Shown here one piece after another: positions 4,485 to 46,720 of a DNA stretch of 64,000 nt (its first letter is position 1; every line of letters begins with the position of its first letter). A program made the position numbers and the translations under genes. The stretch spans positions 160,001 to 224,000 of the forward strand of contig JAEOUA010000012.1 in assembly GCA_016839555.1 (NCBI GenBank), given 5' to 3'. The stretch is from Promethearchaeota archaeon. GTDB taxonomy: Archaea; Asgardarchaeota; Lokiarchaeia; Sigyniarchaeales; SOKP01. Below the pieces are notes generated by a model. It ran no database searches, had not been told where the DNA came from, and worked only from the letters and a program-made list of their open reading frames with translations.

Positions 4485-5150
4485 TTAGGGAGAATCATAA
4501 ACTTTGGTGAAAACTCTAACTCCTCGAGCTTTTAAAAATTCAAGGGGCTCTAAATAATCTATAATTTTATTGCCTGCTAAATTCAATTGTTCAAGTGATA
4601 TCAGTTTTGTAATTGAGTAGGGAACGGTCTTAATTTGATTTTCTGTTAAACGCAGATATTTAAGCGATTCCAGATTAGAAATTTCCTCTGGAATAGTCAG
4701 AATTTTGTTATAACTTAAATCTAAAACTTCAAGGGAAGTTAGCTCAGTTATAACATTAGGAAACTCCTTATAATCATTAATTATTAAACTCAATTTTTTA
4801 ATGGATTTCAATTTTCGAATTGAGTCTGGCAAAAAAATAGAAGTATTGACACTTAAGTCTAATTCTATGATAGAAGTAAGGTTTCCTATCCATTCTGGAA
4901 CAATCGAAATCCTTTGGTGACGCATATATAGCTTCTTAAGTGATACGAGGCTTCTTATAGGCTCTGGAATTTCATTTAATTGGAAATGAGAAATGGCAAG
5001 TGCAGTAACCCTCCCCTTTTCCGTAGTGAACCCCATTTTTGTTTTCCATGAAATATCTTCAACCCTTAAAAATCTTTGGCCCACTATAGATTCCAATTCT
5101 TTCAAAACCTCTAAATCTTGCTGCTCAAGTTCGACCCCACGAAATAGCAA
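4485..5150 (-). CDS. Leucine-rich repeat protein (copy A)
   Basis: 23-residue LRRs (IPEPIRSLVSLKKLYM, IPEEISNLESLKYLRLTEN); TTG start after AAGGTGA SD. Confidence 0.9.
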   Translation of the reverse strand: MLFRGVELEQQDLEVLKELESIVGQRFLRVEDISWKTKMGFTTEKGRVTALAISHFQLNEIPEPIRSLVSLKKLYMRHQRISIVPEWIGNLTSIIELDLSVNTSIFLPDSIRKLKSIKKLSLIINDYKEFPNVITELTSLEVLDLSYNKILTIPEEISNLESLKYLRLTENQIKTVPYSITKLISLEQLNLAGNKIIDYLEPLEFLKARGVRVFTKVYDSP

Positions 5151-5390
5151 TACATTTCACCTTGTTATAAATAATACCTTTATTTTTCTTATCTATATAA
5201 CTTTTTAAATATATTAAATTATTCATTCTACTAAATTAAGGTTTTTTAATGATTTTTGTTGAATTATTTATTGGTTTAGGATTTAAAGAATAAAAAAATA
5301 TATTTAAAGAAACAAGAATCTTTAGCATCTCTATCATAACTTATATATGATATAAATGCTTGTAATTCTTACAATTCCCACATAATTATC

Positions 5391-17674: not shown

Positions 17675-18130
17675 TTAAAATAATTCTAATAATGCGTTAA
17701 TATGTTTATTATCTTGAGAATCCTTTACATATTCTAGAATTCTCTTTGCCAATTCTTTTTTCTTTTTAAAATAAAGTTTCATTATTTCTTGTAGTTCTAA
17801 ATTGGGATATCTTCTCTTTAATGAAAGATCACGCCTTTCACACCCTCCACTTCTCATACAACAATAAGCCATTGATCCAAAACAGACTTTATCAGAATCC
17901 CATCTATTTTCTTTAGAAAATTCTTCTTTTATTTTTATGAAATCCTCTTGAGAGAGTCCTAATTCTGCTAATGTTTGGTCTCTTTTACATTTAAACCCGA
18001 ATGTCAGACTATAACCCGGTTTACAGCAAAATGTTAATGCTCTATAATCTCCCCCCATACAGATGGGAACGGGTGCATTTTTCTCCCAGCCGGGTAAATC
18101 TCGAAGTTTATCCTCTTTTAAGTTAAGTAT
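17675..18130 (-). CDS. Cys-rich protein resembling the methanogenesis marker 9 domain; N-terminus extends upstream of the listed ATG
   Basis: Frame is open upstream of 18058 giving WEKNAPVPICMGGDYRALTFCC; also CFGSMAYCC and CERRD. An in-frame TAA just before ATC-ATA (ATA at 18130) bounds it. Confidence 0.65.
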   Translation of the reverse strand: MLNLKEDKLRDLPGWEKNAPVPICMGGDYRALTFCCKPGYSLTFGFKCKRDQTLAELGLSQEDFIKIKEEFSKENRWDSDKVCFGSMAYCCMRSGGCERRDLSLKRRYPNLELQEIMKLYFKKKKELAKRILEYVKDSQDNKHINALLELF

Positions 18131-18193
18131 GATTTATTTTATAATTTTCTTTCTTTGTAAGAAACGAATGAAAAATATTTTAAAATAAAGGAG

Positions 18194-18328
18194 GGCCCGG
18201 AGCGGGAATCTCGGATAAAGGGAAATCCTTAGATCTATCGAACCCGCGCCTAAGAATCACTGCCTATAAGGATTGAAAAACCCATACAGATCACAGTCCC
18301 CAATACTAACCACTATACTATCCGGGCC
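18194..18328 (-). tRNA. tRNA-His(GTG) with two introns (18258-18290, 33 nt, at 37/38; 18208-18236, 29 nt, at 59/60)
   Basis: Acceptor stem GCCCGGA/TCCGGGC with encoded G-1 and C73; D-loop AGTGGTTA; GTG anticodon at 18294-18292; T-stem GCGGG/CCCGC; both inserts fold as BHB; CCA not encoded. Confidence 0.9.
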
Positions 18329-18463
18329 ATACCTACTTTTATATTAATGAATAATTTATAACATAAAATTTTAATGAATTGGTTTAAAAAATTATTAAAA
18401 TTGAGCTAGATTACCATCAATAGTAATAATTAATTAAAAATAATAAAAAATAGTGACAGATCA

Positions 18464-19917: not shown

Positions 19918-20487
19918 TTAGCTATTTGATTTCACGGTTTTGATTATATAATCCAAACATTTTGAAATTGCCTCATCTAAATTACCTGAGTTATTAATTT
20001 GAATATCTGCTTCAGGAAATTTTTGATGGGTTTTGGCTCTGTTAATTCTTTCCTCCAAATGTTTACCTTTTTCTCTTCCCCTCTCTCTTAATCGTTTTAT
20101 TGTTATCTCAATGGGAACCGAAATAAAAATGACTTTTAGATTTTTATATTTTTTTCTTGCATCCTTTACAATTGTTCTGCTTACATTGATTAGCACTGGA
20201 TGTCCTTTTTTTAAGAAAATATCAATATTAATGGGAATACCGTAGTCTAATCCATAAATATGCCATTTTAATGCAAATTTTCCCTTCCTTTCTAACTTTT
20301 TAAACTCTTCGGGACTCACAGATATGCTATTTTCAGTATCAGAGGCTTCTCTTGTAATATATCTATGAGGACTATCTATCTCTTTTAAATTTTGCGGGTA
20401 ATTGGCTATAACACCAGTAATAATTGAATCTTTTCCAGCTCCTGAATTTCCTATAATCAGAAAGAGTGTTCCGGGATAATTTTTTAT
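19918..20487 (-). CDS. phnN: Ribose 1,5-bisphosphokinase (PhnN, guanylate-kinase-like); apparent ATA start
   Basis: Frame is open upstream of the listed start and contains P-loop GNSGAGKDS and RYITR; WHIYGLDYGIP, NVSR and RLRERGRE follow. An in-frame TGA-TAA precedes AAA-ATA (ATA at 20487). Confidence 0.85.
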   Translation of the reverse strand: MKNYPGTLFLIIGNSGAGKDSIITGVIANYPQNLKEIDSPHRYITREASDTENSISVSPEEFKKLERKGKFALKWHIYGLDYGIPINIDIFLKKGHPVLINVSRTIVKDARKKYKNLKVIFISVPIEITIKRLRERGREKGKHLEERINRAKTHQKFPEADIQINNSGNLDEAISKCLDYIIKTVKSNS

Positions 20488-20639
20488 TTTTTATCACTTT
20501 ATAGAATAAATTATCGAAAATAATGCTTATTAAAAGTTAAAATAAAATTAATTTCTTACTTACTATAAATGTATTTAAAAATCTAAATTATTATTTAAAT
20601 CTAAAATATATTATTTTTATAGAGGAAGAGAAAAATAAT

Positions 20640-45150: not shown

Positions 45151-46720
45151 ATGAGATTAAAAGTAAAAAAAATTAATTTTGAAACAGGCCACATGAAAGA
45201 TGTAGTTTTAAATTATCTAGATGCTGCTAAACTGGATAAAAAAGCTGGCGAACGAGTCATAATCAAAAATGTTGAATCAAAAAATTTGGATGAGAAATAT
45301 TGGGTTGCAATTATTCAAATATCACATTCTGATAATATAGTTGCACCTGGAGAATTAGGTGTTTTCGTAGATACATTAAATGATATAAAAAATCTCAGAG
45401 CTGAAAGTGAAGTTTCCGTAAAACCTGCAAACCCTCCAGATTCATATCAATATATTAAAGAAAAAATAGCTGGGAAAAAATTAAGGACTGAAGATATCAA
45501 CGATATTGTTAACGATGCAGTCTCTGGGCTTCTTTCACGAATCGAATTATCCTCTTTTATCACTAGTGTATCCATTCATGGTATGAGCAATAGAGAAATG
45601 AAGGCCTTAACCCTTGCTGAAGCAAAAAGTGGGGAGGCATTCGATTTTGGTCCGAATGTCTATGATAAGCATAGTACATAAATTTACATATCAGTAAATT
45701 TAGCTAAAAGGAGGCGTCCCGGGTAATAAGGTCTCATTAATTATCGTTCCTATTATTGCAGCAGAAGGATTAACCATTCCCAAAACGAGCACGAGAGCCA
45801 TTACTTCCCCTTCAGGTACAGCAGACTCGATGGAAGTTTTAGCTCCAATTGAATTTAACTCGGAAGAAGTAAAAAGAATCATTTCAGAAATAGGAGCTTG
45901 TATTATTTGGGGGGGTGCATTAGATATTGCTCCAGCTGATAATGTGTTAATTGAAGTAGAGAGACCTTTACATTTAGATCCATGGGGACTGATGATTCCA
46001 TCAATATTGGCAAAGAAAAAATCGATGGGGGTGAAGCAATTGGTATTGGACATCCCTGTGGGAGGCGGAACTAAATTCAGCACTCCTGATGATGGAAAGA
46101 AATTTGCTCATATATTTAAACAAATAGCAAGTAGTGTAGGAATTGAATCAGAATGCGCACTTACTTTAGCTCATCAACCCATAGGGCATAATATTGGACC
46201 TGCCTTAGAGGCGAAAGAAGCGTTAACTCTATTACGAGATTATTCTGCTGGTCCAAATTCCCTTATTGAAAAATCTACTTCATTAGCGGGAATAATTTTT
46301 GAAATGGCAGGAAAAGCATCTAAAGGAGAAGGTCAGAAATTGGCTAAGGATATATTGAAATCAGGCAAAGCCTATCAAAAAATGCAAAAAATTATCGAAA
46401 TTCAAGGTGGCAATCCGGATATTACTCCAGAAGAAATAAATTTAGGTCCCTATAAAAAGGACTTTTATTCAACTAAATCAGGATTTATTACTGAGGTTGA
46501 TAATGCGATAATTAATCAAATTTCAAAAACAGCAGGATGTCCTTTTTCTAAAACCTCTGGTGTAATTGTTTATAAGAAGCAAGGGGCAAAAATCGAAGAG
46601 GGTCAAAAAATTCTTACTGTATATTCTAACAGCAAAACTAAACTCAGAAGAGCAATGAAGTTTTATAATATTAGTGGAGGCCCAGTAATTCTAGGGGGTA
46701 TGTTGATTGAGAGAATATAA
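45151..46720 (+). CDS. AMP phosphorylase (thymidine phosphorylase family), two exons: 45151-45677 and 45709-46720; 512 aa after splicing
   Basis: N-terminal barrel extension; DKHST|GGVPGNK, PKTSTRAITSPSGTADSMEVLAP, WGGALDIAPAD, SILAKK, DIPVG and GPALEA motifs. Confidence 0.9.
45678..45708 (+). other. Candidate 31-nt BHB-type mRNA intron
   Basis: 9-bp stem UAAAUUUAC/GUAAAUUUA, 4-bp helix UAGU/GCUA, 3-nt bulges ACA and AAA; removal restores both the frame and the motif. Confidence 0.8.

Follow-up and report, generated by a model that had tools for sequence, protein, structure and literature searches.

The locus at positions 18194..18328 (minus strand) of the window, that is, of the whole 64,000-nucleotide stretch of DNA analyzed here, raises a question that standard annotation does not answer: is it a working tRNA-His gene interrupted by two BHB introns, or do the two inserts mark something else? 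In the raw window, no tRNA was reported either by ARAGORN or by Rfam at the gathering score. At a loose threshold, Rfam forced only a tRNA-Sec fit, with 22 bits, spanning exactly 18194..18328. When both inserts were removed in silico, ARAGORN recognized a 73-nt tRNA-His(GTG); when only one of them was removed, it gave nothing or a mis-parse. The original prediction, a tRNA-His with one intron in the anticodon loop and another in the T-loop, holds to the base in its coordinates, strand, helices, bulges, insertion sites, and intron sizes.

Structure of the tRNA-His gene

The complete pre-tRNA-His(GTG) gene (18194..18328, minus strand) is 135 nt long and extends from G-1 (18328) to the discriminator base C73 (18194), with no CCA encoded at its 3' end. 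Exon 1 (18328..18291, minus) comprises G-1, the 5' strand of the acceptor stem, the D-arm, the 5' strand of the anticodon stem, and the loop bases C32-A37, including the anticodon GUG (18294..18292, minus). It is followed by intron 1 (18290..18258, minus), a strict hBHBh' intron of 33 nt at the canonical position 37/38. Exon 2 (18257..18237, minus) contains A38, the 3' strand of the anticodon stem, a 4-nt variable loop, the 5' strand of the T-stem, and U54-U59. Intron 2 (18236..18208, minus), also of the strict hBHBh' type and 29 nt in length, occupies the T-loop position 59/60 and separates exon 2 from exon 3 (18207..18194, minus), which supplies U60, the 3' strands of the T-stem and of the acceptor stem, and C73.

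The acceptor stem is formed by GCCCGGA and UCCGGGC, and GUAU-AGUGGUUA-GUAU makes up the D-arm. In the anticodon arm, GGGGA-CUGUGA...AUUCUU, an insert comes after A37, and in the T-arm, GCGGG-UUCGAU...U-CCCGC, the other comes after U59. An extra G-1 opposite C73 is a hallmark of tRNA-His. Here such a G-1 is encoded opposite C73 in a class I body with a GUG anticodon. The spliced anticodon stem includes three G-U pairs, one of which, G30-U40, is unique among 14 orthologues. With 57.5% GC in the exons versus 29.5% in the genome, the gene stands out as a GC island.

A TATA-like sequence TTATAAAT (18354..18361, minus), centred approximately 29 nt upstream of G-1, is a possible archaeal promoter element, though it is not discriminating in a spacer that is very AT-rich throughout. 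The T-rich tract TTTATTTT (18182..18189, minus), beginning 4 nt past C73, is a likely archaeal oligo-T terminator. A scan of the region for sigma-70 promoters and bacterial terminators is not applicable to an archaeal host. Just downstream, on the same strand, lies a cysteine-rich ORF of 127 aa (17675-18058, minus) that belongs to no Pfam family. In the same part of the window, a guanylate-kinase/PhnN-like ORF (19918-20490, minus) has the P-loop N-terminus GNSGAGKDS and no in-frame ATG, GTG, or TTG; the GTG found at 20497, beyond an A-rich run, is in another frame. The anomaly could stem from a frameshift, from a start codon of non-standard type, or from an indel in the assembly.

Splicing motifs of the two introns

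The BHB motifs were scored on a 4-bp central helix (H), two bulges of 3 nt in which the cut falls behind the second base, and one helix on the exon side (h) and another on the intron side (h'). Assignment to the hBHBh' type requires h and h' of at least 2 bp each, and both introns of the tRNA-His gene have them. In intron 1, the central helix is formed by C32-U35 (CUGU) with GCAG (4/4 pairs), the bulges are GA|U and UG|A, h has 7 bp, and h' has 5 bp, resuming past one mismatch. In intron 2, U54-G57 (UUCG) pairs with CGAG (4/4 pairs), with AU|A and AU|U as bulges; the exon-side helix is the T-stem (5 bp), and h' measures 3 bp. In 200,000 shuffles of the intron letters with the exons fixed, the chance of a motif at least as good at the same boundaries was 2.4e-4 for intron 1 and 9.6e-4 for intron 2.

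The repeated GAU makes the boundary of intron 2 ambiguous on sequence alone, between 56/57 and 59/60. All these boundaries lead to an identical product, and BHB geometry alone selects 59/60. The T-loop left after removal of intron 2 is UUCGAUU, so that the loop originally predicted is the one found in the spliced sequence.

Intron 1 resembles the anticodon arm by eye and might have been a local copy of it, but this reading was rejected, as the local alignment of the intron to the mature tRNA is no better than that of shuffled sequences. The p-values of such alignments are 0.67 and 0.77 for the two introns of this gene and fall below 0.05 in only 3 of the 24 orthologue introns.

Folding of the entire precursor yields z = -1.41, a weak and uninformative signal. 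The conformer that combines the cloverleaf and the two BHB motifs is about 4 kcal/mol less stable than the minimum free energy fold (-41.2 versus -45.3), in which the ends of intron 2 are paired otherwise than in the BHB conformer. In the ViennaRNA centroid, the central helix of intron 1 and its 5' bulge are recovered, with the anticodon stem shifted by one pair. This shift agrees with a second BHB register of intron 1 (i=37/j=72), in which cutting one base upstream at both sites would take out 35 nt; all four of its central pairs are Watson-Crick, and h and h' are both 6. Cleavage in this register would give a non-functional product or would at least rival the correct excision. The resulting tRNA would lose A37 and A38 and be left with an anticodon loop of 5 nt, whereas the loop CUGUGAA is conserved in the relatives. 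In the canonical register, the anticodon stem is the normal one (h 7), and we consider use of the shifted register very improbable.

Orthologous genes and copy number

The comparison covered 40 related genomes, and split-aware alignment recovered a tRNA-His orthologue in 20 of these relatives. Exon 1 is 92-97% identical to the tRNA-His of several of them over all 38 nt, and the matches end exactly at 37/38. In three relatives the gene is an intron-less 73-mer, scored at 55-59 bits by Rfam and identified as tRNA-His by ARAGORN; in the MAFFT alignment with these three orthologues from the same locus, both inserts appear as clean gaps. The 127-aa ORF adjoins tRNA-His in at least 15 relatives, with 61-82% identity. 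Since this neighbor is common to them, the tRNA-His genes of the relatives are positional orthologues, and the differences in intron content arose in place.

Across 14 spliced orthologues of 73 nt, not a single non-pair occurs in the 22 stem positions, G-1:C73 is invariant, and double compensatory changes are observed at eight pairs (2:71, 3:70, 4:69, 5:68, 6:67, 7:66, 49:65, and 50:64).

No second tRNA-His-like locus was detected by a split-aware scan of the 3.74-Mb assembly (score 132 for this locus versus 53 for the next best one), which is a MAG with 92% completeness and about 6% contamination, so that a second tRNA-His may lie on the missing sequence. An unexpressed locus alongside a further tRNA-His was among the findings that, according to the original prediction, would have spoken against it, and no such further gene turned up in this 92%-complete assembly. 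The incompleteness of the MAG gives some room to the reading of the locus as a decaying or silent tRNA pseudogene with junk inserts, whose working counterpart is encoded elsewhere, for instance, in the unassembled 8%; an anticodon stem weakened by G30-U40 would also fit it. However, besides the lack of any other His-like locus in the assembly, the gene retains every conserved tRNA position and all 22 stem pairs, exact splicing motifs have been kept in both inserts, and in relatives the tRNA-His gene, interrupted or not, occupies the same syntenic locus. There is thus little likelihood that the gene is a pseudogene.

The weakest alternative, one 17-nt anticodon-loop intron with the rest of intron 1 forming a long class-II-like extra arm, is offered by ARAGORN when only intron 2 is removed and resembles the forced tRNA-Sec fit of Rfam (22 bits), but it is most improbable, as the 17-nt boundaries form no BHB motif (one or two of four central pairs), the 33-nt parse has a full one, tRNA-His is a class I tRNA, and, among the 18 spliced orthologues, 14 have a length of exactly 73 nt and a variable loop of 4 nt, the remaining four measuring 72 or 75 nt.

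Intron turnover at the tRNA-His locus

The orthologues of the tRNA-His gene display a variety of intron layouts. In the relatives, tRNA-His introns were found at 15/16, 20a/21, 22/23, 31/32 or 32/33, 37/38, 45/46, 57/58, and 58/59. These include at least seven sites other than those of this gene, and across the family introns occupy at least eight different positions at the syntenic locus.

Even within the genus, the six congeneric genomes in which tRNA-His was recovered have five layouts. The gene has no introns in G006, a single intron at 22/23 in G001 and G005, introns at 22/23 and 59/60 in G002, a single intron at 37/38 in G004, and introns at 37/38 and 59/60 in the genome studied here. 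The last layout is shared by another relative, G014, whose introns measure 39 nt and 29 nt; at 59/60, G002 too has an intron of 29 nt. A central pair of the 59/60 motif is G57-C in our genome versus A57-U in G014, which constitutes a compensatory change. The 24 tRNA-His introns have lengths of 28-39 nt, with a median of 30.

The intron cores of relatives at the same site have no significant similarity, the best case being the 37/38 intron of this gene against that of G004 (p = 0.03, uncorrected). Because the cores are not significantly similar, inheritance of an intron and its independent gain at the same site are inseparable. The fast turnover of intron positions at one orthologous locus fits the repeated gain of introns published for Asgard tRNAs.

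Other tRNA genes of the genome

ARAGORN with introns allowed found 28 tRNA genes genome-wide, and Rfam found 23 above its cut-off. A SPLITS-like census, in which 155,816 strict BHB candidates were removed in silico before ARAGORN was applied, confirmed in its first round T-loop introns in four further genes: tRNA-Pro(CGG) and tRNA-Cys(GCA), both at 58/59 with BHB introns of 30 nt and 31 nt, respectively, and tRNA-Lys(CUU) and tRNA-Lys(UUU), both at 59/60 with BHB introns of 20 nt and 31 nt. These four loci are situated on contigs C10 (approximately 462333-462438) and C12 (approximately 5067-5188, plus strand, and two minus-strand loci). With four such tRNAs besides tRNA-His, the T-loop is a recurrent insertion site in this genome. 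The second round of the census, which removed pairs and triples of candidates in GC-rich flanks, recovered tRNA-His only.

Many of the approximately 46 expected tRNAs were still not found after ARAGORN, Rfam, and the removal of strict BHB candidates, and it is probable that relaxed or D-arm introns conceal many of the tRNA genes.

The insert in the AMP phosphorylase gene

A BHB-type insert of 31 nt also interrupts the AMP phosphorylase gene in the same window (45678..45708, plus strand). Its removal restores DKHSTGGVPGNK in a single open frame, and the two halves of the gene carry the expected Pfam domains, Glycos_trans_3N in one and Glycos_transf_3 with PYNP_C in the other. The original prediction had matched this insert with the tRNA introns in size and architecture, and had taken the match as support for an mRNA intron and for the spread of introns beyond tRNAs. 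The likeness stands as regards size, the 4-bp central helix, and the 3-nt bulges, but does not extend to the exon-side helix: with h of 0 and h' of 9 bp, the insert has a relaxed HBh' motif. Nor did the comparison of sequences bear out the proposed relationship, as no similarity was found between the insert and the tRNA introns of this genome (p = 0.89). Given the relaxed motif and the lack of sequence similarity, the spread of introns from tRNAs stays only an idea.

We tentatively suggest, while considering it doubtful, that the BHB introns of about 30 nt in tRNA-His, in other tRNAs, and in protein-coding genes are one actively inserting class. If this is true, the recent gains and losses at the tRNA-His locus would form a natural series that could help to elucidate the insertion mechanism. 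The strict BHB introns of the tRNA-His gene, which are of about 30 nt and thus in the size class of the mRNA inserts of this genome, are predicted to be processed in the same cell.

Splicing enzymes and the proposed pathway

On other contigs, the genome encodes two paralogues of EndA, and both Pfam domains are present in either protein. The 198-aa EndA (contig C3) keeps the Tyr/His/Lys triad and aligns end to end with the catalytic subunit of Aeropyrum pernix, 3P1Z_B (E = 5e-40). It also contains the Crenarchaea-specific (L1) loop, in which, by sequence alignment, the lysine of GISKPK corresponds to APE Lys44; the aligned loops are GAPLGISKPK here, GQPLDVEKPR in 3P1Z_B, and GKPIGISKPK in 2CV8. 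The 208-aa EndA (contig C4, L060:1417-2043, minus strand) has Thr in place of the catalytic His. It is closer to the EndA of M. jannaschii (homotetramer-type) and of M. kandleri than to any crenarchaeal chain, and its PDB matches include no structural-subunit chain from Crenarchaeota. With two separate paralogues, one having the triad and the other lacking the His, the subunit composition is that of a predicted (alpha-beta)2 EndA. The RtcB ligase is likewise encoded outside the contig of the tRNA-His gene (564 bits).

The broad-specificity endonuclease originally proposed for this genome is therefore supported by the sequences of the catalytic subunit, with its loop lysine, and of the His-less paralogue. 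The likeness to Thermoproteales did not extend to the host: the catalytic EndA has its homologues at 70-87% identity in Promethearchaeota MAGs, and thus the host is an uncultured member of Promethearchaeota (Loki-type Asgard). To our knowledge, a strict hBHBh' motif is recognized by any archaeal EndA, at whatever position. Since both motifs of the tRNA-His gene are strict, this gene alone does not require an enzyme of relaxed specificity. It is the AMP phosphorylase insert that, with h = 0, would need a relaxed-specificity, loop-bearing EndA.

With a probability of roughly 90%, we interpret the locus as a functional, apparently single-copy tRNA-His(GTG) gene with two BHB introns that are removed by EndA and exons that are joined by RtcB. 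The gene would be transcribed as a 135-nt precursor, which would fold with one BHB motif on the anticodon arm (37/38) and another on the T-arm (59/60). In each 3-nt bulge, the (alpha-beta)2 EndA would then cut between the second and the third base, the two excisions following a presumed order. RtcB would ligate all three exons, and the resulting tRNA of 73 nt, with its encoded G-1:C73 pair, would receive CCA after ligation. The excision of both introns itself we infer from the gene sequence.

Comparison with known systems

In Thermoproteales and other Crenarchaeota, tRNA genes that combine several introns, including BHB introns at non-canonical sites, were reportedly described by Marck and Grosjean in 2003 and by Sugahara in 2007 and 2008. 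The tRNA-His gene resembles these in the combination of an intron at 37/38 with a second one elsewhere, in the strict hBHBh' motifs, and in the use of 59/60, which is among the listed non-canonical sites of archaeal tRNA introns (PMC4090602). The predicted (alpha-beta)2 EndA with the Crenarchaea-specific loop is a further crenarchaeal trait. Unlike the thermoproteal and other crenarchaeal cases, the host is a mesophile-like Asgard archaeon with 29.5% GC, the sizes of the tRNA-His introns are tightly clustered (28-39 nt, median 30, n = 24), and no similarity between introns was detected here, in contrast to the intron families of Thermoproteales. With the BHB intron of the crenarchaeal cbf5 pre-mRNA, the tRNA-His introns share the 4-bp central helix, the 3-nt bulges, the length of about 30 nt, and the presumed processing by EndA and RtcB, whereas they differ from this type by their location in a tRNA and by a strong exon-side helix.

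The closest parallels are found in Asgard archaea. In Atabeyarchaeia and Freyarchaeia, 92-95% of tRNA genes have introns, often several of them and in non-canonical positions (PMC11291895). A study of 90 Asgard genomes described repeated gains of tRNA introns that annotation programs miss, with mostly canonical BHB motifs at the T-arm inserts (Goswami 2026, bioRxiv 10.64898/2026.10.13.758758), and (alpha-beta)2 EndA with the L1 loop was reported throughout Asgard archaea by Kaneta et al. 2018 (PMC5829648). The tRNA-His gene and its host agree with these observations in several respects: multiple and partly non-canonical introns overlooked by annotators, a canonical BHB motif in the T-arm, gains at different positions in relatives, and the same enzyme architecture. 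The published studies are centred on Atabeyarchaeia, Freyrarchaeaceae, and Jordiarchaeaceae, whereas the MAG considered here is from Promethearchaeota (Loki-type), and the median intron length is 22-23 nt in those studies versus about 30 nt in tRNA-His here. There is no match to tRNA-His in the main text of Goswami 2026 (bioRxiv 10.64898/2026.10.13.758758), and this gene and its within-genus polymorphism are named neither there nor in Kaneta 2018 (PMC5829648).

The immediate gain is the correct annotation of a gene missed by ARAGORN and Rfam, which helps to complete the tRNA complement known for this Asgard MAG. From the proposed pathway it also follows that an essential, single-copy tRNA would depend on the splicing machinery of this lineage. 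In itself, the twice-interrupted tRNA-His is an ordinary, well-supported example of a phenomenon already described in Asgard archaea.
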